A stretch of 64,000 nt of DNA from Giardia intestinalis (lineage: Eukaryota): NCBI GenBank assembly GCA_000002435.2, contig CM018790.1; one strand, given 5' to 3'. How positions within the stretch are numbered: position 1 is the first letter of the stretch; each line of letters begins with the position of its first letter. Position numbers and translations under genes: made by a program. Below the pieces are notes generated by a model that was not told the origin of the DNA, ran no database searches, and worked only from the letters and a program-made list of their open reading frames with translations. Below are positions 3,443-51,507 of the stretch, piece by piece.

Positions 3443-3451
3443 AGTTTTTTA

Positions 3452-3458
3452 ATTTACT
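3452..3458 (-). terminator. Candidate AGTAAAT polyadenylation signal downstream of the ankyrin-like gene
   Basis: Minus-strand AGTAAAT lies 63 nt past the stop at 3521 and matches the Giardia AGTRAAY consensus. It sits within the A-rich stretch before the next ATG. Confidence 0.3.
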
Positions 3459-3520
3459 TCACCATACGTTTTTAGAGTCAAACTTCAACGAAATGCTTTT
3501 TGGAAAATGTACTAGATTGC

Positions 3521-4438: not shown

Positions 4439-4471
4439 TACGATGGCACCTAAAATTTATTTTTCCCGATT
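4439..4471. promoter_or_regulatory. 33-bp divergent spacer between the ankyrin-like (minus) and coiled-coil (plus) start codons
   Basis: Both ATGs verified. Spacer is A/T-rich (taaaatttatttttcccgatt). Confidence 0.35.
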
Positions 4472-5866: not shown

Positions 5867-5872
5867 ACTGTA

Positions 5873-6358: not shown

Positions 6359-6373
6359 TTTGAATTAGTTTTA

Positions 6374-7507: not shown

Positions 7508-7520
7508 AAGACTAGAGGTT

Positions 7521-10500
7521 TCATGATACTATGCGTTTTATCCTTTCCTTATCAAAGTCTATGTACTCTTCTAGCTCCTCTAGCGTCTTTAAGAACGTTT
7601 CTCGAGCCAGTAGGTAAAGACCCTCATAGTCCCTATATTTTCCCATGAGCTGATTCGCAAGTACGATCTTTTCTGCTTGCAGGTTCATCAACCTGATAAT
7701 GAGCTTCCCCAATCTTTCGCGACAGAGCTCTATCTCAGTGTGTGTTAGGGAATTTGGTTCCTTACAATATACTGGCAGTTCATTGCGCAGAATGTCTATT
7801 TTTTCCGCTATGTGTGGTGGAAGCATCTCATTATTAGCCTGAACATAGTCAGAATTAGACATGAACCCAGTTATATTGAACCGACCGTGGTATCCAGACT
7901 CACGGCATGTACCATAGGGACCCATGAAGTATACATCTGAATCCGATTGAGGAATGTATGCTTTGTCTACATGTCGAAGCCTGTTTTGCTTTGATTCCTG
8001 GCTTGATCCGTGATAGGTGCTATCACCCGTAAGATAGCTCCCTTGGCGTAAAGCGTGAGTCGCCTTGCTATCGGGATACTTATATAAGTTGCGATAATGC
8101 TTCATCGAAACGTCTGTCTTGACCACCAACTTGGGGTATATTAAGTCAGACAAGAATACCTTTATCAGTCTGGGACATAGTGCGAAATAGCTTGAAGACG
8201 TAGTACCAGTGATGGTCTCTAGCTCTTCAGGTTCTTCCGGGTTCGTGGCTTCAGAAAAATCATCCACAGGGGTACTGAGTGGGGCCATCGCAAGGGATTG
8301 ATGGTATGGCATATTAAGCTTTAAGCTTGCTCTGATTGTTGCTAGTCGCTCGGTTGGAGTAAAGAGCTCTTTAATATCATAGCCTTCATCAGAGTTCAGC
8401 TCCGGGCTTCCTCCCGATTTACGTTTGTCGATAAGAGAATCTTCCAGACTGGTGGAGGGAGCCGTTTTTGTCACACTGTGTGCGCCTGAATAGAGGGAGC
8501 TAGACACGTCATCCATCATGTGTGCGTCTGTCAATTCTTTAGAGTGTACCTTTTGTTCTGGTCGATCTGTGGCTATCCCTACTGTTGGTGACGAAATGCT
8601 TTCTCTGTTTTGGTCATCAAATGGCATGATCTTTTCTGGGAATATCCTAAGCGAATCATCTGCTTCTACGCTACTCTCCAAACATCTTACGGATCGATTG
8701 CTTTGATCTCTAACTATTACATCCGTATTCATGGTTTGGTTTTCTAGAAGGCCGTCATTTGACTTCGTGGCAATGAACGTGTCGTGGTTGTCATTGAGTT
8801 GCTTCTCAGTAAGTGCCACAGTAGTCGATGAGACAAGGTCATCGAAGTTAACCACCTGGATTGTAGTCTCCTGCTCTTCGGAAAATTCATTTCGCTTATT
8901 CAGGAACATTCTAACAATGTCCATAGTTCCGCTGTTCACGCTGGGGGTCACGATACCTGTTAAGTTTTGAAAGACTTTATTAAGCTCATCTGGAAGCCTT
9001 TCAGTATCATAGATTGCTTTTTCAACTATCCTGATGGCCTCTTGGATTGGATTGCTGTATTCCTCATAGACGTATATGACTCTTTGGCGCGAATTTGTGT
9101 GAGGAAATGGGTGTGCAGTGTAGTAGTAAACATTTAGACATCCGGCTAATTTGATTGATGAATCACCAGAGTACACCTGCTGTTGTATCCGTCGCCGAAA
9201 GATTTGTCGCGAGGTGTAGGAATGAATCGTGTTGCAAGACGATCCAGTATCAACTGAGGTTTCGTCGGATGCTAAAACAAACGGATAGTAATTATAAATG
9301 ATATTGGAGTAATACGTTATTGGATAGCCATCTTTCTCATCGGTAGCTCTATGTGCAGATACATGGTCGGCGTGCGTCCGTAGTAGCACTTCCCCAGGGA
9401 TGTGTAAGTTCGGTTCTGTGTGTACAGGCACTAAGTGAGGATTAGAGTATGGCCCCCCAAGGAACGATAAGCTGTCTTCGGGGTGCCCAGCCTTACTGTC
9501 TGCTCCCATGTCATAAGAAAGTAGTTGAGCCAAGATCTTCTGTTTTATCTGCTCCTCCTTTTCTGTGAGAAGTGCAGCCGATTGAACTATCTTGTACGGC
9601 TCCACCTTCTGAACAATTATCTTGGGCGTGCCGTCAGGTTTCCGCAAATCAGGTGGGTCGTAGAACCGCTTCAACCTCTCAGTGAACTCTCGAATTGTCT
9701 CTGAGTGAGGACAGCAATAGATATATTCTGTAGTCGATTCCTTACCGTTGTTTTCCGTCGTGATAGACACCCAATAGTAGTGCACATTCTCATGTAGTTT
9801 GTAAGCGTCCTCGTGGCTCTTCTTTTCGGCCAGGAGTGCGTCACTATAGCACTGGATCATAGAAAGCGGGTCGAAATAGCTAGGTAGCTTATCTTGTGTG
9901 GGTGTAGCCAGAGAGCTAGAATACAGCTCCGTCAGTGTCATAAGAAGCTTGTAGATATGCTTGGTATATAAATAGAACTTGGCAGTCTGGAACTCGGTGG
10001 CAGCGCTCTGCAGTGCAAGTAGTAATTTGAAAAACTGACCACCGTCCAGAGATGAGTATATGTTTTCGCTTTTCCCCATTAGATGCTGTGCCTTTGCAAT
10101 GTACGCGAACCATACATCCAAATCGTTCTGCACAGTAATGTCGGGAATAATCTTGCGCAGCTCCGGGATAACTATCTTACTGAGAGAGTAGACTGAAGGG
10201 AGACTGGAGTAATCAATAACCTTGTCGTCAAATTGTGACCTGACAATTAAGTACTCGCTAATAAGCCCCGCAATCAATATAGACACCATTCCGGCTTCAA
10301 CGTGCCGTCTGTTTTCCCTTAAAAAGTTAAAGAGCGACTGCAGACTAAATAGGCGCAGGTCCACTTGACCAACGTAGCAATCTGCCTGTGACAGCTTGAG
10401 CTCTGCATACAGATCCAAGTCGGTAACGGTGCTCCCCATCGATTGGATCTTGGAGCGCTCCTTTATCATGTACTCGCTTTCTATTACTATGAGCAATCTA

Positions 10501-35738: not shown

Positions 35739-38700
35739 ATGCTTCCAACTTTGTTTGTTAAGGTAGATAACGCACAGAAATGGAGCACAACTGATATAAA
35801 ACAGCCCATAGAAAGTGAAGTACTTGATGTTGATATGGTCAGAAGGGTACTAGGGCGGGCTTTTGATCTAAGCAAGTGTCCCCCTAAGCCTACCATTATG
35901 CATGTGGCTAGCTCTGCGCTGTGCAGGGATCCCGTTCCCAGTAGTGTGCTTACTCGGTACGAACAACTCTCAGACCCGCCAATTCTTCTCCGGTCTGTCA
36001 TCGAGCTATTAACGAGAAAATCGGCGATTTGTGTATGGCCACGGCCTAACCCCTCCATAAATTGCGTCAGATTCCAGTTGTCAGCTTCTGAGATGGATGA
36101 GTTGATAGCTCCCCAGCATTCTAACAATATACATCGAGCCACAGATGCAATCCTTAGCGGCCAGCCGGCCTTTCTCCCTGTACGCTATCCCTCTTATTCT
36201 AGCGGATCTTTAGAAGCCTTAGGCGATTTGTCAGGCTATAGCATGGTTCCTAGGAGCTTACGGTCCCCTGGGGGTTCTCGGCGGCCTTGCCTCCACCTTC
36301 TCATTGATATTACCAATGTAACCTATGGAGACACGAATAAGCAACGATATGAGCCTCTCTGGGGCTCCCTAGCGGTTTATCTACGGCGCACAACCGATTC
36401 AAAGCTTACCCTTCACAAGGTCAGTGAAAGCGCACACTTCGACTTCACTACAAAGGATGTGCTAAGTTTAATGGGTCATGAGTCCTCCGGGAGGGACGTA
36501 ACTGCAATTGCTGAGGCCAGCAGGCTTGTTGAGCTTAGGTTTCCCTTGGATTGCGACTACAATTTGGCAGATTTAGTCCTGGTCATGCAACTGGAACAGC
36601 TCTGGCACAATGAACACCAAACAAGGCACGCAATCTATTCTAAGATCATGTCTCAGGAAGGAAAGCAATCTTCCAAAGGCGCGGCGAGAGAGGCAGCCAA
36701 GATGGCCACAGCCAGTATAATTGCAGCCAGCACAGCAAGTGTGGTGAATACGGGGGGTGAAAAGAAGACGCTTTTTGATACTGTCGGCTCTAATGGCTCT
36801 GTAGTGATGACAGAACTTCAGAAGAAGGATCAGAACTCTATTTGCTCACGGGCTGCCAATGTATGGAAGCGTGCTGGTGCAGTGAGGACGCCTGTAGCTT
36901 TCGGCTTTGCATCTCTGGACTTGTCGTCTCTCCTCCTCTCTCCACAGCCAATTTTGGATGGTGTTCATAAGCCATCTTCCGATAAGCTCATGCAGTACAT
37001 TCTGAAATCACACGCACCTATTCTCAGCGGAGATAAAATTCTCATTACACCGCTTTCTAGATACAATCATGGACCAGCGTGGCACTTCGTCCTCTTAGAT
37101 CAAAGTTATGAAGATTTCTTGACTAACTCGGAGGGATTCCACGAACTTCTGGAGGAGCACTACCGTGAATGGTTACGCAAGAACATACCCGAAGTCCACT
37201 ACATCCATGCTTCGCTCACAGTGCAGTTTCTCAACTTGGGAGTCTTCCACCGGTCCAAGAGCATTCTCACTATCTTTTCGGAGCTCTTTTCTTCTACCTC
37301 ACTCAACCCAGACATGACAATCAACCAGACAGTTGCGAGGCAGAGATATCTGCGCAAAGCCTACAACTCGAGCGTGTCATCCTCTTCGGCAAACGATACA
37401 CCTTATTTCCAGGGCACTGATGGTATGAGCTATCCTACTGAGCTGGCTGCTCTTTTATCTGGGGCAGCAGACTGCAGTGCTCCAATTACAGCAGATGACC
37501 TGGTGCGGCTACTCTCAACGAACAGCGAGGCAAACCTGGCACGGGGTATAATGGACTTAGAGGTAGGTGCTACAAGCATCTCCCAGCAAGCAACTACGGC
37601 CCATGGGATTGTGTATTCTGCAGAGCTCGATAACTTCTTCAACAAGCATGCATTTCTGTCACCACTGAACACAGGAATGTTCAACAATAGAATGTATTTA
37701 TATATGAGCAAGTGCTACATCCGACGTAAGTTCACTGGGAACCTGCTTGTGCGTGTGGAACTGCGTGATAGTGATGACTTGTCGTCATATACTATTATTC
37801 AGTCGTTTTACTCTCGGTACACAGATAACTACAACCCAACAAATGCACCATCCTCGAGCATATTTTGCAGTTCTGTCGTCCAGCTGACTGGCTATGAAAG
37901 CTCCAGAGTTGCTCAGCTAGGCGTCAATACTGTGGACCTTCCCCTCTTGCTTCCATCCCAATTAACTTGCTGTGCACCCCACACCAAGGCAGCGTACTTT
38001 GGTACTGAATTCAAGTTGGAACTTCCTTTAGTTATTACAGAGGGCATGCATTTCTTTTTCACGATATATTCGGTCAATGCCTTGCACGGCGATAAGCAAG
38101 ACCGGCTTGTATCACTTGATGACACGATACTCAGCCATGCCAGCAGTGCGTCTGGTATCACTCTAGGGGCATCCAATTTTTCCACATCCATGTCCACAGC
38201 GAGCACTATCTATCGATCCTCTCGGCAGCCAGATTCCACAACAAAGTCTGCGACCACGCACCGTGCTGTCAAGAACGACGCCTTCACCCCTATAGGCTAT
38301 GCCTATCTCCCGCTTCAACAGTTTGACTCTGCACACAACCGCATGTACCATCTCTCTGCCGACTATCTCTCCCTACGAGTGTTTGAGACAGATTTGTCTT
38401 CAGGGTATCTTTCTGCTTCTCCAATCGGAGACCGCACAAGCTCTCACCTAGTCGTAAAGTGCACATCTCAAAGCTCCATTTTCACTCAGAATGTTAATGT
38501 TTTTCAAGTCCTAGAGCAGTACAGTCTGATTGATCAAAGCATCTCCCGCGCGACTGGCTCCATTGCCGGAACCGTGGCAAGCTCGGGCTCCTCTGCCTAT
38601 GAGATAGAGCTTTCTCCCCTAGAGCTTTCCAAATTACTAACTTCTCTTAATGCCAGGCTGCAGGATCTTCTCGAGGTTCTCCAGAAAGGTGAGGACCCGG

Positions 38701-41700
38701 ATCTAATGGTGTCTCTTCTTCACTATCTTCCGGTGTTTATAACAATGCATTCTACTATTCAGTCACGCATACTTCTAATAAGGGAAGTGACTGAGAGCTC
38801 TGTTGTGCTTACAAGTATGGCTCGTGGGCTTTCTCTTTTAGTGCTGATAACACGAACTTTTGAGAGAGACCAGCCATCGAGCCACGACGCTGCTCTTTCT
38901 TATGCACAACGAATTCTCTTTAGTGCATGTGTCTTTCGAAGTAAGCCTCAGTATGACGCATTGCTCCGCGACCAGACGCAGTATGGAAAATTGGTGTCAC
39001 CGTTCCTTCCTTTGGAGCCGGAGCTCAATGCTAATAAGGCTTCAAGGCTGGAAAGGCTGGAAAACATTTCAAAGTTGCAGGAACCGTGGAAGAAAGTATC
39101 TACTACGTCTGCCTATTCCCTTTCATTTCTTCTAGATAGTCGGACCTGTTTTAACAACCCTGTGCCTTCTTTTTACACTAAGCCTTGTACTGACGAAGTA
39201 CCCTCGATCGTTGCCAATGCCGTTTATAAAAGTGCCTACCCAGAGACTCTCTCCGAGCTTACGGGCTTCGTGGAAGCTGCCCTTCTTCACCTAGACGCAG
39301 ACACATCTCTTGGTGCTGCTCTGCAGGCCTCATGGTATAGCCTTCAGCAAATTGAGAAGTCTCTTGCCTTTATATTTGCCGAAACAGAGTGCACTCTGGA
39401 GCACCGATTCTATGAGGCGCTTACACCAGGAGGCCTTCTTTCTCCGATGTCCCAGTCTAAGAGTAGCCCATCAGACGGCGCTAATGCATATGTTCCCCTG
39501 TCACCTCTTAATAGCAAACAAACACCTGTTCTTTCGAGTACTAAATCCCCAGCAACTGTACACACAGATGCTGATCTTCTTTATCTTCAGAGCAGCCTAC
39601 AGAGACTACTGATCATCCTAGGGCGAAAAATGCTGGTCTATATTGCTAGGACCTTAGATAAAGCCGGAGTTCTCCCGGATGTCTCTCGCTCAATTGCCCG
39701 AGTGATATCAGTGTGCCACGCCTTTCATTACGATACTCTAGGCTCGGTACTTACTACTTGTTTCTGTGGCCAAGTGCTACCTACATTAGTCGACACCTCA
39801 TGGTCTTATGGCGAGTTCAAGCAGTTCCAGATCTTCACAAGCATTCAGGACCAAATCAAGGATATGCACTCCACTAACTTTATGTGGAACACCATTGAAG
39901 CAGAGACGCTGGCCAGCATAGAGACCCCTGAACCTGTTGCAAAGATTCTGACCCACTGCTACAAGAACATCTATTATCCCTTCTTTTCCGAAATGTTCTC
40001 TTTAGGGCTACCATATATTCACTTTTCCTACAACCAGTTTCGTCGCTATTCTAAAGCTGGCCGTATAGAAAGCGAAATTGCGCCAGTTCCTCCAGATAAC
40101 TTGGTCTCTATTCGCGAACTTGCCCGTGCACCCGAGGTTCGGTCAGACTCTGTGTCCTCTCACGCTCTGACAAATATGGCTACTAAGCAAGTGCTTCCAC
40201 CATCTTCTCCCACGCAACGAGCTTCTAGTACTTCCACTCCTGTCCCTGGCAGCATTGTTAGAACGATCCCCTCAGCAGCTATTGGGGGCTTTTCTCCACC
40301 TCAAACTCCCGTTTTCCCATCTACGGATAAGTCCTCGCAGCCTGATAAGCAGCGCCAAGATCTATTTAATTCTATTGAGCGCCTGACCACCGAGCAACTC
40401 GTCCCTCCTCTTCTCAAGTATTTTCAGGAAGTGCTGGTTCACTGTCTTATGCGATGTGACAGTGCCACAGTGCAGTTGATAGTGATGTTTATGAAGGAGC
40501 TACTGTTAGACATTCCCTTTTTCACCACAGACGCATTCTTCGGAGGCTGGGACAAGTATACTCATCATACAGCCTTCTTGGTTCGGCCAGTGTTTTATGC
40601 TCTTATCATGACCTTTACCAGAGTAATCTCGCTCTCCTATTCTGCTGATCTACCACAGGCAGTGGGAGCTGCTGCGATAACACAGAGAGCAGAGGCAAGT
40701 GTTTCCGTGGAGGAACGGAAGGTTGACCTCACCTATGGAGAGTCAAGTGATCCGTCAATTCCTGGCTTACAGGCTCAAGACAGTGCGAATCTCCGGGTCG
40801 CTAAAATACAATCTGCGTCCATGGAGCCCAGTAACATCTCCACAATGTCCGGGACACCAAATCTTCAGTTGGGCCGCCTCCCGACCAACATTGCAGCAAC
40901 AAACGCACCAGATAGAGCTATCTCTACAGTTATTGTGCGAACGGTCATCCATCTTATCCTATTTGCGCTTGTCTACGACCGTGACGTCTTAAGTCTCACC
41001 ACCACGTCTCTTGATCATCTAGCTACTGTCTGTCAATGCATTTCTATGATTCCAAAATATTATTCGAGTGACTCGTTGGCCTCCTCGCACTTTCTATCCG
41101 TAGGATCAATGAGCTTTCTGGATCATCACATGGCTAACATATATCAAGCGGCAACGCGGTACGAGATGGACTATATTGTGAAAAGCAGTGAGTTCCACAG
41201 CGCTACAGATAAGATGGCGTGTTTGGTTGGTGTATATCTCAGACAGCTTGAACTTCTTTATTCCCCTTCCCATATTTCAACAAGTCCACAAGTCGATTTG
41301 GCCGCTATAAAATCCCGGCACCAGAGACGGCCGATTAAAGCAAAGATATTTCGTAACCTGTTTGCTAAGAAGCGTTCCGCTAGCTCAACAAAGGGCCTGG
41401 GTCATAATGGGGAACTGGATCTGCTTGAGACGAGTACACTAGCAACCCCCAGTGAGCGCCAGGACAGGTCTCCCATCCGAAAGAGTCTGTTCGATAGCAA
41501 CGCAACGCCTCCGCGAAGCAAGAACGCATTTGTAACGGGCAGAAAGCGTGTCTCCATGCGATCGAAGTCTAAAGGGGGGCAATTGGACAAAATACCAGTG
41601 CAGGAGGCTTCTCAAGACGGAGTGACTGGAGACTATAGCGATATGGATGAGTTTTCTGCCCTGCAGGCATCCCTACTAATCAGCAGTGTTAGGAGCTCGT

Positions 41701-44700
41701 TCCGCAATAGCGGAAGGCTGGGACTATTAGAAGCATCAACAGAAAGCAGTATTCTATTTGATAATCAGTCAGATTCCACCGTATTTCAGCTATATACCAT
41801 AGCTGATTTGGCCACGGATACCTCTGCAAACCAGGCACTTCAAAAGGTAGACGAGCAATGTATCGCTCATCTAGGTCATATTATCCTCGTGCTCGGACTG
41901 TCGTATTTCAAGCGCGTTTTTCACCAATTCCGTATCCTCATTTCCACTATCAAAGGACACGGCGACTACAGGCGCATCATTTCTGGGGGTCCCTTTTATC
42001 CTACTCTTTTAGGTCCTGATAGCTTGCGGCACTCCCCACTCGCTACCAGAGAGCTGGGCAACGTGCAGAATTCCACTGTAATAAAACGAAAGTCGATTGA
42101 TCCGGCAGACAAGTCGTCTGAGCAGGCAAGGCAGAATACCTCCTTCAAGCGCTTAGAAGATGTACCCAACTCGCATACCCTGGTGTGCATGATCGCTAGA
42201 ATGGTGTGGGCGGTGCATCTTACTATTTATAACTTTATTCCTTGCCCCTTATTTACTGATCAACTCAGAATTAAGCTCTTGGATTATGCACGTGACTTCG
42301 TGAGCGGGTATAAGGACTACTTGTATATAGATTCACGGTACTCATCCATTGAGCCGATGTTTGCGTACTTTAACATATATAGGGTTCTATTCCGTTTAGC
42401 AATGGAAAGTAGGGGAGCCCTGCAGAATAAGTCGCTCGCTCCTGCAAAGGACAATAACGATGATCAGCATAAGAAGGCAGTTGAACTCGCAATCGAAGGC
42501 AAAGAAAAACTGTATAAAAAGTCAGTTGAGCTTGTCAGAATGCTGCTTCGAGAAGAGAGCTATCGCATAAATAGGGTTAACAACGTTAGTCTAGTCCAGA
42601 TATCCACTCTTTTCTCAAGTCTAGTCACGAATAAGAACGAGTACGAGACCATGCTCATTGTGATTGATGATATAACTAGAGATAGCAACGCACTGGCTAA
42701 TATATCTGAGAAGCTGCGTCAGATTTTACTGGATCGAAACCATATAAATAACATGGCATTCTGCATCAATCCACATACCGGAAAGCAGTGCTACCAACTG
42801 GATTATCTTTTGAACCTGTACTTTGACCAGGCAGAGCTCTACTTTCAGCAACCAGAGATGCGCTTTGAAGCATTACACGCGTTGTTCCATCTTTTACTGG
42901 AGCATGACAGGCAAATTGAGGCAGCCCACATGGCAATTTTAATGTGCAGCCTCATTTCTGAGTTGACCCACCGAGAGGCCACTATAAGCGACTCCTATGA
43001 CGTGGAACTGCGTTATGCGATCATTCCTGGTCTTCTGATAAGCTCCAAATCGTCGAGGTCTGCCCTTTTGTCGCCAAGGTCTGGCTCACAGGCGCTCTAT
43101 CAAAACATTGTTGATTCTCCGACAATTTCTAGCGTAATTTCGCAAATACCCTATCGGCTGGAGCAAATATGGTTGTTCAGGGAGTGCATCCATGACTTCC
43201 GGCGTATTCTCCCAGGTCTCACGATACAGACGGAAAAAGATGTGATCCAGAGAATGTTTGATCAGAGTGCTTCTCCCTTCTCTCTACACGATTTTTTTGG
43301 ACATCTGGCCACAGCAGGCGAGATCTTTTTAAAGAGCAACTATTTTTGGCAAGCGTCTGTTGTATTCAGTCTGCTACTGCAGCTACATAACAAGTTTGGG
43401 AACATTAACAAAGCAATCGAAGCAGCAGAGCTATACACCAAATCTATCAAGCAATACCTGGCAGGCGAACAAGTGACCAAGTCACGGATGTACCTCGTGT
43501 CATTCCATAACTTCAGTGAAGATGTGGACGTTGAGGAATACATATACTGTAATAACCTCAGTCCAGATGACTTCCGCCTCAATCTGAGAACATTCTATAC
43601 CGCTAAGTACCCTGACGTTATTATTTGCGGCCAGGGCTCGAGACTTGATTCAGACCAAATAAAAGCAAAGACGATACGCATAGCAAATGTGACACCCATC
43701 ACACTCATACCAGGGACAGATTTGACAGAGTCAATCTTGAATCGAATTCAAACATCGCTGCTAGCATACTTTTCCAGGATAATCGGCTCCACGCCAGCAT
43801 CCAACCAACATCACTCGCATGGCCTCAGGAACGTTGCTGTCAATTCTACTGCGAGTGCAATCACCGAAGACTCGCCTCTTAGACCATTGTCGCCTGTTCC
43901 CAGGTTTTCTCAACAAAGACTCGATGCTGCTGGATTTAATGTACATAGATATATTGCTCTAGTTCTTTCGTACGTCTGTGGAGCGACTGGACCCAACTAT
44001 TCCTCCTTAGATCTAAAAGTTAGGCATCCAGACATACAAAAGCAAGGTGCACATCTTTACTCTTTCGTCTTCAAGTACTCGTATGCGGATACACACGAGG
44101 TGGATAGGAGACAAGATGGGAAAACAGCCGTATACGGACAAATAGATCGGTATTGCTTCGTTCCTTACGCATTTCCTTCTTACAAGACTCGTCAGATAGT
44201 AATAGGCTCGTACAGTAACAAGATTCCTCCCATAGTCGCAAGCGCGTTTAGGGTTCTTGAAAAGGCTGCGGCCATCACTCAGCACGTGCAGAATAAGGAT
44301 CCGCTCGGACAGATCCAGCTTACGCTTTCTGGCATGCTTATGGCATTTGTCAACAAAGGACCCGTGCATCTAGCCGAGCTATTCCTGAAGAGAATCGTCC
44401 CAGCCGAGCATAACACTATGCCTAAAGACTTGCACTCCAATCGAACCCAAACCCCTGTCTTGAGTAATGCACTGAGCATAGGCAATCTTAGCATTGCACG
44501 GGTGATATCTCAACGTGCCATCGAGGGAACTCCTCAGGCACAGACTCTACAAGTCTCTATAACCGCGGAAAGTGACACCACGCAGGGGCGCTTCAGTGGA
44601 GCCTTTGGGGCTCTGTATCCCGGTCTCCCAGGAACCACAGTGGGAGCGGGCGCAAGCTATGACACGCTTACACGCTGCAGTATAAGGAATGATGAGCCGT

Positions 44701-45110
44701 CAATGGAGAGTAGAATCAGCCGCGCTTATCGCACAAGTGGATATCTTACATGTCCAGATTTTTCAAGTAATAGGGAGTCTGTGGCAAGCGTTGCCTTCAG
44801 TGACGGCGGGCTTGTGATAGAGTCAAACGCAACCTGTCCTGAGTCTCTCCTGTCTAGCTGGGAAGAGTTCGAACCCTCGGAATACCTGAGTATCAGCTTG
44901 AAGTATATGATGGACCGGATAGTTCTTGGCTTGAGATATTCTACCGAGCTGTGCAAACATGGGATGAATGAGATAACCCTACAAAAAACGCTTATGCAGC
45001 GATGCATCGAGATGATTAACGCCCTTAAATTTTACATTGACGGTTGGGACTACAACCCACTAATTGATCAATGTGTGGCGCTGGCTTCCCTATTAGAAAT
45101 TATTTCCTAG
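35739..45110 (+). CDS. Giant (3123 aa) DOCK-like protein with DHR-1 and DHR-2 motifs
   Basis: DHR-1-like EFKLELPLVITEGMHFFFTIYSV and IGYAYLPLQQFD (nt about 38011..38340). DHR-2-like EEYIYCNNLSPDDFRLNLRTFYTAKYPDVIICGQGSRLDSDQIKAKTIRIANVTPI (nt about 43531..43712), resembling DOCK KEYIYKEPKLT...VKIIQDS.KV...YIQVTYVTPF. Confidence 0.6.
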   Translation: MLPTLFVKVDNAQKWSTTDIKQPIESEVLDVDMVRRVLGRAFDLSKCPPKPTIMHVASSALCRDPVPSSVLTRYEQLSDPPILLRSVIELLTRKSAICVWPRPNPSINCVRFQLSASEMDELIAPQHSNNIHRATDAILSGQPAFLPVRYPSYSSGSLEALGDLSGYSMVPRSLRSPGGSRRPCLHLLIDITNVTYGDTNKQRYEPLWGSLAVYLRRTTDSKLTLHKVSESAHFDFTTKDVLSLMGHESSGRDVTAIAEASRLVELRFPLDCDYNLADLVLVMQLEQLWHNEHQTRHAIYSKIMSQEGKQSSKGAAREAAKMATASIIAASTASVVNTGGEKKTLFDTVGSNGSVVMTELQKKDQNSICSRAANVWKRAGAVRTPVAFGFASLDLSSLLLSPQPILDGVHKPSSDKLMQYILKSHAPILSGDKILITPLSRYNHGPAWHFVLLDQSYEDFLTNSEGFHELLEEHYREWLRKNIPEVHYIHASLTVQFLNLGVFHRSKSILTIFSELFSSTSLNPDMTINQTVARQRYLRKAYNSSVSSSSANDTPYFQGTDGMSYPTELAALLSGAADCSAPITADDLVRLLSTNSEANLARGIMDLEVGATSISQQATTAHGIVYSAELDNFFNKHAFLSPLNTGMFNNRMYLYMSKCYIRRKFTGNLLVRVELRDSDDLSSYTIIQSFYSRYTDNYNPTNAPSSSIFCSSVVQLTGYESSRVAQLGVNTVDLPLLLPSQLTCCAPHTKAAYFGTEFKLELPLVITEGMHFFFTIYSVNALHGDKQDRLVSLDDTILSHASSASGITLGASNFSTSMSTASTIYRSSRQPDSTTKSATTHRAVKNDAFTPIGYAYLPLQQFDSAHNRMYHLSADYLSLRVFETDLSSGYLSASPIGDRTSSHLVVKCTSQSSIFTQNVNVFQVLEQYSLIDQSISRATGSIAGTVASSGSSAYEIELSPLELSKLLTSLNARLQDLLEVLQKGEDPDLMVSLLHYLPVFITMHSTIQSRILLIREVTESSVVLTSMARGLSLLVLITRTFERDQPSSHDAALSYAQRILFSACVFRSKPQYDALLRDQTQYGKLVSPFLPLEPELNANKASRLERLENISKLQEPWKKVSTTSAYSLSFLLDSRTCFNNPVPSFYTKPCTDEVPSIVANAVYKSAYPETLSELTGFVEAALLHLDADTSLGAALQASWYSLQQIEKSLAFIFAETECTLEHRFYEALTPGGLLSPMSQSKSSPSDGANAYVPLSPLNSKQTPVLSSTKSPATVHTDADLLYLQSSLQRLLIILGRKMLVYIARTLDKAGVLPDVSRSIARVISVCHAFHYDTLGSVLTTCFCGQVLPTLVDTSWSYGEFKQFQIFTSIQDQIKDMHSTNFMWNTIEAETLASIETPEPVAKILTHCYKNIYYPFFSEMFSLGLPYIHFSYNQFRRYSKAGRIESEIAPVPPDNLVSIRELARAPEVRSDSVSSHALTNMATKQVLPPSSPTQRASSTSTPVPGSIVRTIPSAAIGGFSPPQTPVFPSTDKSSQPDKQRQDLFNSIERLTTEQLVPPLLKYFQEVLVHCLMRCDSATVQLIVMFMKELLLDIPFFTTDAFFGGWDKYTHHTAFLVRPVFYALIMTFTRVISLSYSADLPQAVGAAAITQRAEASVSVEERKVDLTYGESSDPSIPGLQAQDSANLRVAKIQSASMEPSNISTMSGTPNLQLGRLPTNIAATNAPDRAISTVIVRTVIHLILFALVYDRDVLSLTTTSLDHLATVCQCISMIPKYYSSDSLASSHFLSVGSMSFLDHHMANIYQAATRYEMDYIVKSSEFHSATDKMACLVGVYLRQLELLYSPSHISTSPQVDLAAIKSRHQRRPIKAKIFRNLFAKKRSASSTKGLGHNGELDLLETSTLATPSERQDRSPIRKSLFDSNATPPRSKNAFVTGRKRVSMRSKSKGGQLDKIPVQEASQDGVTGDYSDMDEFSALQASLLISSVRSSFRNSGRLGLLEASTESSILFDNQSDSTVFQLYTIADLATDTSANQALQKVDEQCIAHLGHIILVLGLSYFKRVFHQFRILISTIKGHGDYRRIISGGPFYPTLLGPDSLRHSPLATRELGNVQNSTVIKRKSIDPADKSSEQARQNTSFKRLEDVPNSHTLVCMIARMVWAVHLTIYNFIPCPLFTDQLRIKLLDYARDFVSGYKDYLYIDSRYSSIEPMFAYFNIYRVLFRLAMESRGALQNKSLAPAKDNNDDQHKKAVELAIEGKEKLYKKSVELVRMLLREESYRINRVNNVSLVQISTLFSSLVTNKNEYETMLIVIDDITRDSNALANISEKLRQILLDRNHINNMAFCINPHTGKQCYQLDYLLNLYFDQAELYFQQPEMRFEALHALFHLLLEHDRQIEAAHMAILMCSLISELTHREATISDSYDVELRYAIIPGLLISSKSSRSALLSPRSGSQALYQNIVDSPTISSVISQIPYRLEQIWLFRECIHDFRRILPGLTIQTEKDVIQRMFDQSASPFSLHDFFGHLATAGEIFLKSNYFWQASVVFSLLLQLHNKFGNINKAIEAAELYTKSIKQYLAGEQVTKSRMYLVSFHNFSEDVDVEEYIYCNNLSPDDFRLNLRTFYTAKYPDVIICGQGSRLDSDQIKAKTIRIANVTPITLIPGTDLTESILNRIQTSLLAYFSRIIGSTPASNQHHSHGLRNVAVNSTASAITEDSPLRPLSPVPRFSQQRLDAAGFNVHRYIALVLSYVCGATGPNYSSLDLKVRHPDIQKQGAHLYSFVFKYSYADTHEVDRRQDGKTAVYGQIDRYCFVPYAFPSYKTRQIVIGSYSNKIPPIVASAFRVLEKAAAITQHVQNKDPLGQIQLTLSGMLMAFVNKGPVHLAELFLKRIVPAEHNTMPKDLHSNRTQTPVLSNALSIGNLSIARVISQRAIEGTPQAQTLQVSITAESDTTQGRFSGAFGALYPGLPGTTVGAGASYDTLTRCSIRNDEPSMESRISRAYRTSGYLTCPDFSSNRESVASVAFSDGGLVIESNATCPESLLSSWEEFEPSEYLSISLKYMMDRIVLGLRYSTELCKHGMNEITLQKTLMQRCIEMINALKFYIDGWDYNPLIDQCVALASLLEIIS

Positions 45111-45557: not shown

Positions 45558-48500
45558 ATGATCTGCTTGACCTGGCTTCTAGTCCTTAGCCTCACTGAAG
45601 AGTGCCAGCGTCGCGATACCACGATAGGCATCTATAGCGAAAGCGATTTTAACAAAATCAGGGACTGTCCTTGCTGCGATTATGCAATAGGTGCAGACAT
45701 CGCCTTTCAGCGCCCCATAGTCCCCATTCCTGTTTTTACCGGTAGCCTCTATGGTCAGAATCACACGCTGAGCAATATACGGTTTGATCTTAGCGGAACG
45801 CCTAATGAGTACGTTAACTGCGGAATATTTGGATTTCTGGACCAGGGGACTGTTGCAGCAGTATCCCTTGTTATCAGTCATACAATGGTTGACAGCAAAA
45901 TCCTGAACTTGGGCACTGTGGCAGGGTATGCCTACAAGCCACGACTATACATGATCAATGTAACTGGAACCATCGAAGGCACCTTTTCCACACCTTCTAG
46001 CTCAAGCGAACACCCTTATCTGGACAAAGGATCCTCCATCGGAGGCATCGTTGGCCTTTTAGAGAATGAAAACGGGGAGCCCATCACCGAGATGAGGGGC
46101 TTTGTTAATGTCTCTCTCAGCAACGTTAACAGTGTATACTATCCTCTTAATATCGGCAGCTTCTTCGGTAGATTCGAAAGCGATACCCCACTGCAGCACT
46201 TCATCATACACTGGTCGTCTACTATGCAGGTCGCTCTTAAGAGTAACACTACGGCATATGTCGGTGGCGCTGTGGGGTACTGTGCTGCAGACGTGGTGCA
46301 CGCCACAATAGGAACTAACCAGACCTCTGGAACTATAACTGGAAAGGGTACTCCAACCCTGTTTCTCGGCGGCGCGTTTGGCTCCGTCGGAGGCCTGTAC
46401 AAAATACTGAGTTGGAACAAGAACACTACCTGTGCTGCTGAAGAGGGAACTTGTGTCTCTGGCGCGATAGCCGGAATGGTCTCCACAAGGAAAGCGGTAT
46501 ATAATTTAACCTTTGGCGGCCCCTCAACCGTTAGTTGTGATGCACTGTCATGCACAACTGGTGGGGTGATAGGCAGTGCAGACGCAGGGAAGTTTGATAC
46601 GATGCTGTTCAACGGATCTGTCAGCTGCAAAGCACGCGATACAGTAACGTGTGGTGGGGTGTTTGGTCATGTCTTTTCATCCCTTGATAGGATCTATTCA
46701 TATGCACAGAGCGTTGTAGCATCTTCAGTTGCTAGCTCTTCAGACATGATCATGGCTGTAGGAGGCCTTGCCGGTATTATTGGAGGAGACTCACTGAACG
46801 GGGAAATGCTCGTTATCAATTCCAGTGTTTCCAATGTAACAACTGTTAGTGGAACCGGTCCTGGCTCTATCTTCATAGGCGGGTTTGCAGGAAAAATAGC
46901 AATGCAAGCAGTGAGACTCATACGGATTTACTCATGTGCAGCATACAGCAATACAGTCAATGCAACAGAGACGTCCTCTAGTTACGCAATTAGCAATCAT
47001 GCTACAGCAGGCGGTTTTGTCGCGTTCTCCAAAATGGCAAAGTACGATTTTTCCTACTCGTACAATAGCCAGAATATATCAGCGGAAAGTAAGCTTTCAT
47101 CTGCTGCTGCCGGCGGCTTTGTCGGAGACGGGCTTGAAACGCACGGAAATCATATGATGATATACAACGCATACATAAATGGCACCAGTGGCGGGCCAGA
47201 ACAGGCATCTGTCCGTGTAGGCGGGTTCGGTGGGGGACTAGAAGGGAATGCCTTGGTTCGCTATACTGGTGCTTTCAGTAAAGCTCTAATTGGAAAGTCG
47301 GTAGCCCAAGCAGCTCTCAATGTAGGAGGGTTTGCTGGGATTCTCCAGGGAGCTCACTCTTACGGCGGGTTTTGCGAGGCCGACATCATTGATGTGACAG
47401 CCACTGGGGATGCTGGTCGCTATTCTGTAGGGGGGTTTGTTGGGACACTGAATGGTGTGACATCATACGTCAACGGAGCGTGGGCAAAAGCCAACATCAA
47501 AGTAACTAATCCTGGTAGTGCAGCTTTCGACTCTAAAAAGGGTATGAGGATTGGTGGCTTTGTAGGGACAATGGAGAGCTCGTCAGTCTTAAACTCAACT
47601 CAGGCTTTTGGATCGATCACGCTGAGCCAAGCCCAATCAGCTAAGGCTGGTGCGATGGTGGGTGCAGCACATACAGCAAACATATCAGCATGCATGAGCA
47701 ATGTAACATTCTCCTCGTCTCCATCACAATCCGATCCCTTCAAGATGGTGGGATACTCGGACGGGACGATCAGCATGGACGATGGCTCGATGAACTTCCA
47801 AATTGTAGAAACAGAAGGACAGGCAAGCGAAACCAACGTGACGTATTTGACCTGGGACAAGGCGAAGAAGAACAGCAGCTATCAAACTACATCAGGTAGC
47901 TATTATCACGGGTTCAATTTAAACAACCCTAGTAGGCGCCAATATCTCATTAAGTACGAGAACGAGTACCCAGGCCTTCAAGTTTTACCCAACCCTTGCT
48001 CGGTAGATAATCCGCGCTGGAGGGAGGGCAACTATTGCATCTTTGTGGAGTTCAACGTCAACATAACACTGTCCAGTGAGTACATGGATGGCAAGCCTTT
48101 CGTTGCAGCGCATGTAGCGCCAGACACGTGCCCGGACTTCTCCGTCTGCCGGGGGCACTACACTAGTCCTCTTACCGTTGACTGCAATCCTGGCTTTGGA
48201 GGGTTGCGCTGTGGAAATTGCACCACCGACTCAGCATGTGCTCATGGAGGTAGCTGTGACAAGTCCTTTGGTTCTTCATATGGATCGTGCAAGTGTGTTC
48301 GGGGTTACAAAGGTGTCGACTGCACATACGAAACCTGCGGGGGGTATAAGAACGATCAATGTAATGGATTGGGCATGTGTACCTATGTCAATGATGGCTT
48401 TTATATCTGTGATTGCCCATCCAAGGAGTACTACATCAAGAATCAGCTCTGTGCCAAGGGGTGCATGGGCCTCACAACCGGCATGTGTGTAGGTCCGCCC

Positions 48501-48824
48501 TCCAACTTAGATAGAAATATACTCTGTCCTCCAGGGCAATCCTATAAAACGTTCTGTGGATCACAATCAGGCGTAAATCAGAGCGGGTATATTGCATCCA
48601 TCAGCATTATGACGATAATCGCCGTAGTTGCGGTCATTCTTCTGGTCCTAGTTGCGCTGGGGAAGGTTTCCTTTACCTGTTGCAAAGCCAACGGAGGCCA
48701 CCAGAGAGATCTGGGAGATTCCATGCCACTGGCAGATCGTGAAATGGTCAACAGCATCCACTCACCACTGGACGCAAGTGTTCGCCGTATCCAAAGCGTT
48801 AGTGGTGGGGTGTCAATCCTCTAA
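45558..48824 (+). CDS. High-cysteine membrane protein (EGF-like / tenascin-like type) whose ectodomain consists of GGFVG periodic repeats (GLUG-like)
   Basis: Signal peptide MICLTWLLVLSL; repeated GGF[VA]G units about every 30 aa (SVGGFVGTLNGVTSYVNGAWAKANIKVTN, RIGGFVGTMESS); C-terminal Cys-rich EGF-like modules (CKCVRGYKGVDCTYETCGG..., CDCPSKEYY); transmembrane segment IMTIIAVVAVILLVLVAL; 60-aa cytoplasmic tail. Confidence 0.7.
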   Translation: MICLTWLLVLSLTEECQRRDTTIGIYSESDFNKIRDCPCCDYAIGADIAFQRPIVPIPVFTGSLYGQNHTLSNIRFDLSGTPNEYVNCGIFGFLDQGTVAAVSLVISHTMVDSKILNLGTVAGYAYKPRLYMINVTGTIEGTFSTPSSSSEHPYLDKGSSIGGIVGLLENENGEPITEMRGFVNVSLSNVNSVYYPLNIGSFFGRFESDTPLQHFIIHWSSTMQVALKSNTTAYVGGAVGYCAADVVHATIGTNQTSGTITGKGTPTLFLGGAFGSVGGLYKILSWNKNTTCAAEEGTCVSGAIAGMVSTRKAVYNLTFGGPSTVSCDALSCTTGGVIGSADAGKFDTMLFNGSVSCKARDTVTCGGVFGHVFSSLDRIYSYAQSVVASSVASSSDMIMAVGGLAGIIGGDSLNGEMLVINSSVSNVTTVSGTGPGSIFIGGFAGKIAMQAVRLIRIYSCAAYSNTVNATETSSSYAISNHATAGGFVAFSKMAKYDFSYSYNSQNISAESKLSSAAAGGFVGDGLETHGNHMMIYNAYINGTSGGPEQASVRVGGFGGGLEGNALVRYTGAFSKALIGKSVAQAALNVGGFAGILQGAHSYGGFCEADIIDVTATGDAGRYSVGGFVGTLNGVTSYVNGAWAKANIKVTNPGSAAFDSKKGMRIGGFVGTMESSSVLNSTQAFGSITLSQAQSAKAGAMVGAAHTANISACMSNVTFSSSPSQSDPFKMVGYSDGTISMDDGSMNFQIVETEGQASETNVTYLTWDKAKKNSSYQTTSGSYYHGFNLNNPSRRQYLIKYENEYPGLQVLPNPCSVDNPRWREGNYCIFVEFNVNITLSSEYMDGKPFVAAHVAPDTCPDFSVCRGHYTSPLTVDCNPGFGGLRCGNCTTDSACAHGGSCDKSFGSSYGSCKCVRGYKGVDCTYETCGGYKNDQCNGLGMCTYVNDGFYICDCPSKEYYIKNQLCAKGCMGLTTGMCVGPPSNLDRNILCPPGQSYKTFCGSQSGVNQSGYIASISIMTIIAVVAVILLVLVALGKVSFTCCKANGGHQRDLGDSMPLADREMVNSIHSPLDASVRRIQSVSGGVSIL

Positions 48825-48888: not shown

Positions 48889-49926
48889 TCACTTGTCATC
48901 GGCCTTATCGGCATCCTCGACAACTTCGTCGTCATCATCATCTCCAGTGGACTCTTCTTCCTTGGAGTCATTGTTTGCTGCCTCGCGCTCCGCAATGGTC
49001 CTCTTCAAGGCCTCGGCCGCGTCATTCTCCATCTTTTTGATGTCATCCATAGTCATTCCTTTCCACTCATCCCACCAGATACAGCACTTCTTGTGTGTTT
49101 CTGTGAACACCGACTCCATCTTCTTCCCTAGTATGCCTTCGATGAGCTTCTCGCCTGGAAAAGCCGTATGGACCTTCAGGATTTTGTAGACTATGCAATG
49201 GTCGCCGTTGTTTTCCTTAGAGATACGCTTAATGTCTGCCTTCAGAGGGCCCTCACTGAGAGCCTTCGGTGCTTCCCTGTTCTCCTTGGCAGCAAGCTTC
49301 TTCTCCTTAGCTTCCTTTTTCTTGTCTATCTTCAGAGGCTGTGTGACATCGCAATACACACGCTCGATGACACCCCCCTTGGCCTCTGCAAACTCTAGCT
49401 TCGAAATATCCTCTGTATCTTTGCGCTCTTTAAGGGCCTCCTTGTCCTTCTTCAGCGATTCCTTATCTTTCTTCTCAAGAGTAAATGACTCCGGTATACT
49501 CTTGCGAACCTCCTCGGGGAGGTCGAAGGTCTCGGCGTATGATGCGTTCTTCGGAGCACTATAGACCCAGGTCTCAACCGACATCGCCAGCTTATCGGGG
49601 TACCCGGGGTTATGGTAGGACGTAACCGTGTGGGGGAAGGCGTTGTAACAGGTCTCCTCCATCTTGAGACCCTTCTTGGGAATCAGATTTGCAATGGCCT
49701 TGGGTACCATTTTGGACAAGTGAAGCAGCTTAAAGGTATAGATGCCGGATTCCTCCTGTCCTGAGGGGAGTGTGCGAGTGTACGGCTCATTTTTGAGAAT
49801 CTCAAACCCATCAGAAGACTTCTTGGAGCTCTCTTCTAAGGTAGATCTGGCAACCATGTAGAGCTGCCCGAGTTTATACTTCTCGATCGAGAAGGGAAGG
49901 GGGATGGCAAACACATAGTAGCGCAT
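48889..49926 (-). CDS. Phosphatidylinositol transfer protein (PITP) with an acidic C-terminal tail
   Basis: MRYYVFAIPLPFSIEKYKLGQLYMVARST matches PITP-alpha [29 protein letters not shown], and CCIWWDEWKGMTMDDIKKME matches FCWLDKWVDLTMDDIRRME. Track start 49962 is TTG; true ATG is cat 49924..49926. Confidence 0.85.
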   Translation of the reverse strand: MRYYVFAIPLPFSIEKYKLGQLYMVARSTLEESSKKSSDGFEILKNEPYTRTLPSGQEESGIYTFKLLHLSKMVPKAIANLIPKKGLKMEETCYNAFPHTVTSYHNPGYPDKLAMSVETWVYSAPKNASYAETFDLPEEVRKSIPESFTLEKKDKESLKKDKEALKERKDTEDISKLEFAEAKGGVIERVYCDVTQPLKIDKKKEAKEKKLAAKENREAPKALSEGPLKADIKRISKENNGDHCIVYKILKVHTAFPGEKLIEGILGKKMESVFTETHKKCCIWWDEWKGMTMDDIKKMENDAAEALKRTIAEREAANNDSKEEESTGDDDDDEVVEDADKADDK

Positions 49927-49998
49927 GTATTTTTGTTGTCGAATATTGTTTTTAAGACACAAAATTTTGAATTTCCCAACTTCGTATTTTCAAAAAGC

Positions 49999-51507
49999 AT
50001 GGCAACTAATCGCTTCGTCGTAGCGCACTTCGAGGCCTATCAGAAAGCACGGCAAGATTTTGTTCAGGGGCTAGCAGAATTAGCACAGCATCCCCAGAAT
50101 GTGGAAACGATAAAATCTCTCGGTGGTGTGGCTCTCTGCAGATCTTTGTTAATGGATAATGTGCCATCCATACAGCACTCTGCGGCCACAGCTCTAGGGA
50201 GAATTGCTAACTTTTCCGAGGAGATGGCCGAACTGGTCGTTGCGAACGATGTTCTTCCTCAGTTGGTATTCTCTCTCGCGGAACGGAATCGGCACTACCA
50301 AAAAGCCGCAGCATTTGTGCTTCGCAGTGTCGCCCGTCACTCTCCGTCTCTGGCCCAGGCTGTGGTTGATGCAGGATCTTTAGAGCCTCTTGCAATCTGT
50401 TTGGACGAGTTTGATCCGTGTGTCAAGGAGGCTGCAGCTTGGGCACTGGGGTACATTGCACGTCATAACGAGCACTTAGCGCAAGCAGTTGTTGATGCTG
50501 GCGCTGTTCCTTTTCTCATTGCTGCTGCACAAGAACCTGAGCTGAGCCTGAAACGCATCGCTGTTTCGGCTCTTTCAGACATATCTAAACACACACCAGA
50601 ACTCGCACAAGCAGTCGTGGACGCTGGGGCTATCTCCTACATCAGTCCTCTAATCTCGTCTAAGGATGCGAGGGTGCGACGCCAGGTGTGCTCCGCCTTG
50701 TCTCAGCTGGCCAAGCACTCAGTGGAACTGGCAGAGCTCTGCGTTGAAGGTGAGATATTTCCACGTGCCCTTCTTCTTCTTCGGGACAAGGACAGTATTA
50801 CTTCGCGCAACGCGGCGACACTTGTTCGCGAGGTGGTAAAGCACACAGCAGAGTTGGCTCAGCTAGTCGTTAATGCTGGAGGCATTGGTGCCCTCGTTGA
50901 GTTCATATCTGTGACGCGAGGACCAGACCGGCTTCCAGGAATAATGGCTCTGGGCTTTATAGCAGCCTTTAGCGAAACTTTGGCCCTCTCCATTATAGTT
51001 GCAAAGGGGGTGACGCCGTTAGTCAGTTGCCTGGTCTCTGAAGTAGAGGATCATGTGCTGGCTGCAACTGTTTGGACCTTGGGGCAGATAGGCCGTCACT
51101 CCCCCGACCATGCGAAAGCCATCTGTGACGCAAACGTTCTGCCCAAACTTCTGGCTCTATTCATCAGTGAGAGCTCCAGTGACGACCTAAGACAAAAGGC
51201 GAAGAGAAGTATCAAGTTCACTGTACAAAAGACAACAGCGCTCCCTGCCCTTGACCCCCTGCTCTTCCAGAGTCCACCGTCCATACTGAAGCACGTCGTG
51301 GCTCAGTATGCAAAGATACTCCCCAAGGATGTAGAGTCCAGGAGACAATTTGTTACATCCGGCGGATTGCAGAAAATACAATCCATCGCATGTGAGCCGG
51401 GAACAAAACTTTATGAAGCCATCGAGCAATGCAATGCGTGCTTCCCAGACGAAATAGTTAAGTACTACACCCGAAAGCCAGAGAATATGCTCGATCTGAT
51501 CAAGTAA
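49999..51507 (+). CDS. PF16: SPAG6 / PF16 armadillo-repeat protein (axonemal central-pair)
   Basis: Collinear match to human SPAG6 over most of its length (FEAYQKARQDFVQGLAELAQHPQNVETI vs FEQYQKARTQFVQMVAELATRPQNIETL; KEAAAWALGYIARHNEHLAQAVVDAGAVP identical stretch). 502 aa versus 509. Track start is TTG; true ATG at 49999. AGTAAAT overlaps the stop. Confidence 0.92.
   Translation: MATNRFVVAHFEAYQKARQDFVQGLAELAQHPQNVETIKSLGGVALCRSLLMDNVPSIQHSAATALGRIANFSEEMAELVVANDVLPQLVFSLAERNRHYQKAAAFVLRSVARHSPSLAQAVVDAGSLEPLAICLDEFDPCVKEAAAWALGYIARHNEHLAQAVVDAGAVPFLIAAAQEPELSLKRIAVSALSDISKHTPELAQAVVDAGAISYISPLISSKDARVRRQVCSALSQLAKHSVELAELCVEGEIFPRALLLLRDKDSITSRNAATLVREVVKHTAELAQLVVNAGGIGALVEFISVTRGPDRLPGIMALGFIAAFSETLALSIIVAKGVTPLVSCLVSEVEDHVLAATVWTLGQIGRHSPDHAKAICDANVLPKLLALFISESSSDDLRQKAKRSIKFTVQKTTALPALDPLLFQSPPSILKHVVAQYAKILPKDVESRRQFVTSGGLQKIQSIACEPGTKLYEAIEQCNACFPDEIVKYYTRKPENMLDLIK

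Follow-up and report, generated by a model that had tools for sequence, protein, structure and literature searches.

The 64,000-nt stretch of Giardia intestinalis contig CM018790.1 that was analysed here (the window) carries, at 45558..48824 on the plus strand, a gene whose product is identical to the GL50803_114210 protein of Giardia intestinalis WB clone C6 (XP_001705529.1, 'hypothetical protein'). A first-pass annotation had singled out positions 46700-47700, which fall within this one 1088-aa open reading frame (ORF) and correspond to aa 382-715. This identity assigns the window to assemblage A of G. intestinalis. Orthologues form clusters with 99%, 79%, 77%, and 73% identity, the copy of the GS isolate belonging to the 79% cluster. 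GenBank already lists the DH (ESU36529.1) and GS (ESU44934.1) copies as 'Putative GLUG motif protein', and the P15 copy is an 'EGF-like domain-containing protein' in UniProt. In the literature, ORF 114210 has been described as a 'hypothetical surface protein' and a 'large membrane protein' (PMC7461913, PMC9094438). The evidence presented below makes it quite probable that the protein is a non-catalytic surface rod, composed of a GLUG beta-helix on an EGF-like stalk, that acts in binding or adhesion and is of prokaryotic derivation.

The flagged stretch had been described as a series of GGFVG-type periodic units, and all six of the units quoted were located: AGGFVAFSK at aa 484-492, AAAGGFVGDG at 516-525, VRVGGFGGGLEG at 552-563, LNVGGFAGILQG at 587-598, SVGGFVG... 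at 623-651, and RIGGFVGTMESS at 664-675. Within aa 17-735 there are 16 matches to the motif G[GAS]-h-h-G, whereas 5000 shuffled sequences averaged 0.82 and never exceeded 7. Together with two degenerate copies, these matches give 18 regularly spaced G-G-[LIVF]-[LIVAF]-G units that can be anchored (alignment A1) at the G-x-x-G positions aa 89, 119, 162, 200, 236, 271, 302, 335, 366, 402, 441, 485, 519, 555, 590, 625, 666, and 698, and about 18-19 units are present in all, from aa ~57 to ~730. The repeats thus begin at about aa 57-89 instead of being confined to aa 380-720, and their spacing, estimated beforehand as 25-35 aa, is 30-44 aa with a mean of 35.8 and a median of 35. Periodicity is also apparent from BLOSUM62 autocorrelation of aa 81-730, which has its maxima at lags 33 (z 3.9) and 35 (z 3.8), both above the 3.54 that marks the 95th percentile of best-lag values from shuffles, and from a fast Fourier transform of the glycine indicator, in which the strongest component has a period of 36. 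Conservation between units is low, with a mean column identity of 24% and only the two G-x-x-G glycines reaching at least 90%; of the conserved N/S/Y positions proposed earlier, a loose tendency remains, clearest in the C-terminal rungs.

Relationship to prokaryotic proteins was assessed by an exhaustive phmmer search with aa 17-800 against 1.84 billion representative proteins. The 16 matches fall into two groups, namely proteins of the same architecture that match over the whole ectodomain, and bacterial-type proteins (P0039, P0040, P0042, P0043, P0045, and P0046), several of which pass the Pfam models Glug (PF07581) and/or Peptidase_M26_N (PF05342). Among the latter are P0039 (phmmer E 1.5e-7; Glug 72 bits), P0040 (E 1.4e-5; Glug 48 bits), and P0042 (E 8.3e-5; Glug 95.7 bits and Peptidase_M26_N 45 bits). 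A profile built from the ectodomain alignment of the Giardia family (A4) matched 425 proteins at E<=1e-3, a number that leaves out four proteins already in the query alignment (P0033, P0035, P0037, and P0038). Beyond Giardia, the matches are bacterial and archaeal, and most have precomputed PF07581 and/or PF05342 assignments; the best is a type IX secretion system (T9SS) protein of Coprobacter tertius (E 4.6e-49), and Methanimicrococcus 'GLUG domain-containing proteins' were also matched. Among PDB sequences, the A4 profile matched the Streptococcus pneumoniae IgA1 protease only (6XJB, 7JGJ, and 6XJA), at an E-value of 7.6e-8 and with its GGxxG rungs aligned in register. The match covers chain residues 212-347, or about 876-1011 by our own renumbering from the construct start at 665, which lies within the beta-helix solved at residues 781-1070 (PMC7695701). 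The family profile was necessary for this result, as phmmer of the ectodomain against PDB sequences returned nothing.

The most extended comparison was obtained with hhalign, in which the Giardia-family rows and 18 bacterial segments were aligned over 503 columns with a probability of 100 and an E-value of 4.4e-49. Because the bacterial segments had been picked as matches of the Giardia profile, this E-value only describes the alignment and should not be read as the statistic of a database search; the independent statistics are those of the phmmer search and of the A4 searches of proteins and of the PDB. The alignment opens in a non-repetitive cap (I-x-s-x-x-d-L...Y-x-L-x-x-D-I-x-L...W-x-P-I...F-x-G-x-L-x-G-x-G-h-t-I-x-N...G-l-F-g), and the Giardia and bacterial rows have an identical median distance of 35 aa between rungs. 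In GL50803_114210 the cap reads DYAIGADIAF..PIVPIPVFTGSLYGQNHTLSNIRF...CGIFGF, which conforms to the pattern Y-x-L-x-x-D-I-x-L...W-x-P-I...F-x-G-x-[LF]-x-G-x-G-h-x-I followed by G-[LI]-F-G, and its residues P56, F60, G62, L64, and G66, together with G89 and F91, are invariant across the eight-member family alignment. In the phmmer matches, aa ~23-146 align with a stretch within the C-terminal half of Peptidase_M26_N. Homology of GL50803_114210 to bacterial and archaeal GLUG proteins, to judge from these sequence comparisons, is well supported even though the Pfam cut-off is missed, as discussed below.

A side observation concerns the cap by itself. In P0036, a bacterial protein of 1691 aa from a JGI metagenome with Big_3_5 and InlK_D3 domains, four separate stretches match the Giardia cap (query 9-63) with an E-value of 4e-16, which suggests that the cap may occur alone as a repeated module.

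The fold was predicted with AlphaFold2 (AF2) from a 26-sequence alignment, in which aa 17-760 of GL50803_114210 formed the first row, followed by seven family ectodomains and the 18 bacterial segments. The mean predicted local distance difference test score (pLDDT) was 87.7 and the predicted template modelling score (pTM) 0.90, with the five models between 87.0 and 87.7. Between aa ~57 and ~720 the model is all-beta without a break, each rung contributing about three strands, and pLDDT falls below 50 only at aa 742-760; at the cap (aa 17-85), a helix is followed by strands with pLDDT mostly >90. The predicted structure is a right-handed parallel beta-helix like the N-terminal domain of IgA1 protease, in line with the beta-solenoid anticipated by the first-pass annotation. 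The rise of a beta-helix is about 4.8 Å per rung, from which, rather than from measurement on the model, a length of roughly 9 nm can be estimated.

The predicted beta-helix also bears on a published assignment of the protein as a complement-factor-H-like regulator. That assignment comes from I-TASSER threading alone (Ansell 2019, as quoted in PMC7461913), it is contradicted at the level of the fold by the model, and no Sushi match was found in Pfam at E<=10; a factor-H-like protein is therefore extremely unlikely.

Several results weigh against the placement of GL50803_114210 among GLUG proteins. In the direct test proposed by the first-pass annotation, the Pfam Glug model, whose gathering threshold is 20.5 bits, gave 13.2 bits for the whole protein (E 0.13) and 15.8 bits for aa 1-801 (E 0.019), and the orthologues P0002-P0004 had no Pfam Glug match; by the curated threshold, the protein is not a member of the family. 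When GL50803_114210 was compared with itself by blastp, no internal match reached E<=1, as the units have diverged too far for a pairwise comparison to detect them; their periodicity nevertheless holds. A first AF2 run on the full-length protein with four close orthologues gave a pLDDT of 43 and was unusable, and the later model cannot count as fully independent evidence of homology because its alignment contains bacterial GLUG segments. Foldseek E-values were weak (best 0.022). Pointing the other way, the best partial match to Pfam Glug covers aa 586-618, and in a scan of single units, three of the 18 match Glug (best E 0.002), which is the sole family matched by any unit among 24,736 Pfam families. 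The resemblance to GLUG-type beta-solenoids of IgA1-protease/ZmpB proteins noted at the outset is thus borne out by profile and structural evidence and falls short in the direct Pfam test.

The sub-threshold Pfam score, the conservation of glycines alone between units, and the capacity of repeat proteins to inflate profile scores are arguments for convergence, in which the GGxxG periodicity arose independently in Giardia and mimics GLUG through tight glycine turns. The first-pass annotation had offered such a convergent beta-solenoid as an alternative. However, the two sets of sequences can be aligned collinearly over ~500 columns, among them the non-repetitive cap (D-Y-x-L-x-x-D-I...W-x-P-I...F-x-G-x-L-x-G-x-G-H-T-I-x-N), and for this reason the sequence comparison favours common descent, and convergence is considered very unlikely.

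The remaining parts of the GL50803_114210 protein are summarized in Table 1. The C-terminal cap resembles, in a relaxed form and by eye and regular expression only, a bacterial post-helix motif, T-T-x-E-M-K...W-D-F...W-x-I...Y-P-x-L, which a strict regular expression found 18 times in the fetched GLUG proteins; a hidden Markov model of the C-terminal cap (aa 745-815) gave a weak match as its best against about 125 fetched bacterial GLUG proteins (E 0.004). The protein has 21 N-x-S/T sequons, of which 16 lie in the helix; this fits the glycosylation reported for ORF 114210 (Ratner 2008, as cited in PMC7461913).

Table 1. Features of the GL50803_114210 gene and its product (nucleotide positions are those of the window).
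Feature	Position	Strand	Basis or remark
Complete gene, 1088 aa + stop	45558..48824	+	ORF list; 0 differences to P0006; names via cluster look-up
Probable signal peptide, aa 1-16, MICLTWLLVLSLTEEC	45558..45605	+	Hydrophobic N-terminus; similar start in all family members
N-terminal cap and first turn, aa 17-85, IYSESDFNKIRDCPCCDYAIGADIAF..PIPVFTGSLYGQNHTLSNIRF	45606..45812	+	Family alignment, hhalign, phmmer, AF2
Predicted right-handed parallel beta-helix, ~18 GLUG-like rungs, aa 86-727	45813..47738	+	Unit alignment, family alignment, AF2
Flagged stretch, aa 382-715: C-terminal 10 rungs, the most GLUG-like ones	46700..47700	+	Pfam Glug partial match, single-unit scan
C-terminal cap and linker, aa 728-813, including TYLTWDKAKKNSSYQ..GFNL..RRQYLIKYENEYPGLQVLP	47739..47996	+	Family alignment, regular expression
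Cys-rich EGF-like stalk, aa 814-1000, 24 Cys	47997..48557	+	Cys positions; sub-threshold EGF_TEN/EGF; family-invariant cysteines
Single transmembrane helix, aa 1011-1035, YIASISIMTIIAVVAVILLVLVALG	48588..48662	+	Sequence; helix 1014-1033 in first AF2 model
Cytoplasmic tail, aa 1036-1088	48663..48821	+	Sequence; without CRGKA

The Cys-rich stalk raises the question of whether the protein belongs to a cysteine-rich surface family of Giardia, namely HCMPs (high-cysteine membrane proteins), the variant-specific surface proteins (VSPs), or tenascin-like proteins, with an ectodomain that is essentially EGF-like. The C-terminal 190 residues are indeed Cys-rich with weak EGF_TEN and EGF similarity (EGF_TEN 17-21 bits against a cut-off of 65; EGF 12-15 bits against 21.5 in orthologues), 17 cysteines in this part are unchanged throughout the family alignment, and the UniProt name of the P15 copy points in the same direction. 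The segment CKCVRGYKGVDC fits the EGF pattern C-x-C-x2-G-[FYW]-x4-C. The EGF-like module thus appears to be real but weak by Pfam. The protein as a whole is not rich in cysteine, however: its 40 cysteines amount to 3.7% of the 1088 residues, and the content is 1.9% in the 719-residue helix region (aa 17-735). HCMPs, as summarised in PMC7461913 after Davids 2006, combine a high cysteine content with numerous CXXC and CXC motifs in their extracellular part, and the literature lists ORF 114210 apart from them as a 'hypothetical surface protein'; on these grounds, and judged without the numerical threshold of the original definition, assignment to the HCMPs was rejected. The gene also sits among DOCK-type, phosphatidylinositol transfer protein (PITP), and armadillo (ARM)-repeat housekeeping genes, whereas HCMPs are said to lie often in variable regions. 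The tail speaks against membership in the VSPs, as it lacks the CRGKA motif that ends VSP tails (PMC7461913). An origin of the whole protein within these cysteine-rich families is thus very improbable, and of the earlier designation 'high-cysteine EGF-like membrane protein', the EGF-like part can be retained and the HCMP label cannot.

An enzymatic function was also considered, either as an M26-type IgA protease or as a pectin-lyase-fold, glycan-degrading enzyme acting on mucus. Of IgA1 protease, the PDB profile match takes in nothing but the N-terminal helix, which is not catalytic; the active site of the protease lies between the middle domain (MD) and the C-terminal domain (CTD), outside the helix (PMC7695701). 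In GL50803_114210, neither an HExxH motif nor a middle or C-terminal protease domain is present, so it does not qualify as an M26 protease; the Pfam scan detected no catalytic or peptidase domain and no lyase or hydrolase family, and the NCBIfam scan gave no match. Enzymatic activity of either kind is therefore improbable.

The non-catalytic GLUG beta-helix with an EGF-like anchor is shared by a family. The phmmer matches of the same architecture include P0033 (E 2.7e-36, 30% identity), GL50803_7188 (P0034; E 1.9e-18, 1103 aa), P0035 (E 1.6e-17), GL50803_137747 (P0037; E 4.7e-12, 1087 aa), and P0038 (E 5e-11). All five are like GL50803_114210 from end to end, with a signal peptide, the cap, ~18 rungs, the C-terminal cap, the EGF-like cysteine pattern, and the transmembrane (TM) helix. 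They differ in that their identity to it is 21-30%, that P0033, unlike GL50803_114210, passes Pfam Glug (35.2 bits), and that P0035 (1388 aa; Glug 20.3 bits) has a much longer EGF region. The two further G. intestinalis proteins, GL50803_7188 and GL50803_137747, are 22-23% identical to GL50803_114210 and share its cap, ~18 GLUG rungs, EGF-like region, and TM helix; the DH copy of GL50803_137747 carries the name 'Putative peptidase, GLUG motif', but the Pfam scan showed no peptidase domain in this protein. Across the eight-member family, identity is 21-30%, the anchor glycines are invariant, and the invariant columns are almost exclusively rung glycines, the cap motif, and cysteines of the EGF region.

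The distant homologues of the whole protein P0033, P0035, and P0038, with 24-30% identity, are encoded on three contigs: L001 at 4001-7225, L002 at 4664-8830, and L003 at 2023-5289 (GC 67%, 61%, and 45%; samples SRR14944320, JGI 3300010163, and ERR3333381, respectively). Because L002 also encodes a cathepsin C with an exclusion domain and a Rab GDI, and L003 a Ser/Thr kinase, these contigs look eukaryotic; none of the three shows synteny with the window. In the searches made, the eukaryotic GLUG helices were only those of the three G. intestinalis paralogues and the three eukaryote-like contigs, and the A4 search found such helices to be abundant in bacteria and archaea. The EGF-like and TM C-terminus is common to all eukaryotic members of the family alignment, which points to one origin followed by duplication. 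A profile search with the C-terminal alignment (A6) recovered one fragment from 910 candidates; as it evidently missed even known orthologues, it carries no information on the distribution of the EGF-like module. Lateral acquisition of the GLUG module from prokaryotes fits this distribution and is plausible, not proven. A reservation applies to this part of the explanation, in that the direction of transfer rests on distribution only and that the eukaryotic range may be wider, given the three eukaryote-like contigs.

With regard to the neighbourhood, the upstream gene at 35739..45110 (+) encodes a protein of 3123 aa with DOCK-C2 and DHR-2 lobe A and lobe C matches, corresponding to a DOCK-family Rho/Rac guanine-nucleotide exchange factor. 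Downstream, 48889..49962 (-) encodes a PITP (IP_trans, E 2.5e-46) whose long C-terminal extension is acidic and rich in lysine, and 49933..51507 (+) encodes an armadillo-repeat protein in head-to-head orientation with it. The overlap of these two genes in the ORF list is apparent only, because alternative TTG starts were used; the first ATGs (about 49926 and 49999) place them only ~70 bp apart. ORFs of 100-163 aa that overlap GL50803_114210 in a different frame or on the other strand, at 46139..46630 (-), 45579..45881 (-), and 48178..48492 (+), have no supporting evidence as genes and are probably by-products of the long coding region.

According to published transcriptomics, ORF 114210 belongs to the few genes that show reproducible induction upon encounter of trophozoites or encysting cells with Caco-2 or IEC6 cells (PMC7461913, PMC9094438). 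Only four genes rank among the top 30 up-regulated in each of the three Giardia-Caco-2 data sets compared; ORF 114210 is one, and the other three are HCMPs (PMC9094438). The surface location, glycosylation, and induction of the protein are known from the literature, and the repeats, the homology, the fold prediction, the missing protease motifs, and the family come from the present analysis; the binding function, its ligand, and the direction and timing of transfer we infer. On this basis, GL50803_114210 is probably a type I plasma-membrane glycoprotein whose ectodomain forms one long right-handed parallel beta-helix of ~19 rungs of 30-44 residues, each a divergent GLUG unit. The G-G-h-h-G turn is the only strictly kept feature, presumably because the glycines form the tight inter-strand turn. 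At its start the helix has the N-terminal cap that is also found in GLUG/Peptidase_M26_N surface proteins of bacteria and archaea, to which it is homologous, and the EGF-like cysteine-rich stalk would keep it off the membrane, followed by one TM helix and a tail of ~50 residues. The protein most likely serves as a rigid, glycosylated binding or adhesion rod on the trophozoite surface that is induced by contact with the host epithelium. An ancestor of Giardia most likely took up the GLUG module from prokaryotes and combined it with a eukaryotic EGF/TM anchor, after which duplication would have given the paralogues GL50803_7188 and GL50803_137747.

A function in binding or adhesion towards a host or luminal ligand is suggested by analogy, because the IgA1 protease helix contacts the Fab and the GLUG proteins of gut archaea are proposed adhesins (PMC9723798). 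The GLUG helix of IgA1 protease binds IgA1 Fab and gates the active site, and it is the only GLUG helix with a known ligand and a solved complex. A more specific proposal, in which the helix is a laterally acquired bacterial-type module that binds secretory IgA, mucin, or another molecule of the host mucosa and acts as an adhesin or immune-evasion factor, is regarded as unlikely. Within the library searched, no paper linking Giardia with GLUG was found. Placement among GLUG proteins would replace the 'hypothetical' or factor-H-like annotation of a prominent host-induced gene, drop the factor-H-like and peptidase labels, and provide a structural frame, namely a predicted glycosylated rod of ~9 nm on an EGF-like stalk. 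It would also define a family of three G. intestinalis paralogues and more distant eukaryotic relatives, and add a candidate prokaryote-derived surface module in gut protists. The novelty is modest, as the GenBank names of the DH and GS copies already contain the GLUG hint.

Among known systems, the right-handed parallel beta-helix adhesins PfbA of S. pneumoniae, the autotransporter passengers UpaB, Ag43, and Vag8, and L. reuteri SRRP have no detected sequence relationship to the Giardia helix and rank below the IgA1 protease-type helices. Closer counterparts are the GLUG surface proteins of gut anaerobes, such as Coprobacter tertius P0077 and Methanimicrococcus P0101 and P0106 (A4 E 1e-49 to 1e-16), which likewise have long multi-rung helices. 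These proteins carry the post-helix motif ending in Y-P-x-L, and an adhesive role has been proposed for them (PMC9723798). They differ in their prokaryotic partners, which are T9SS sorting, Flg_new, Big, dockerin, and fibronectin type III domains, and the EGF and TM module was present in none of the prokaryotic A4 matches listed. The structurally characterized counterpart is the N-terminal beta-helix of the M26 IgA1 metalloproteases, represented by S. pneumoniae IgA1P/ZmpA (6XJB and 7JGJ), Gemella haemolysans 7UVK, and Bacteroides ovatus BACOVA_03286 (3N6Z), which in Pfam comprises the C-terminal part of Peptidase_M26_N and Glug. The streptococcal M26 enzymes have an N-terminal LPXTG/TM region with G5 domains. 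In contrast to IgA1P, the Giardia protein is devoid of the MD and CTD protease domains and of HExxH, and its helix is more than twice as long (~640 compared with ~290 residues). Unlike the M26 proteases, it belongs to a eukaryote, and its anchor would consist of an EGF-like stalk together with a TM helix at the C-terminus.

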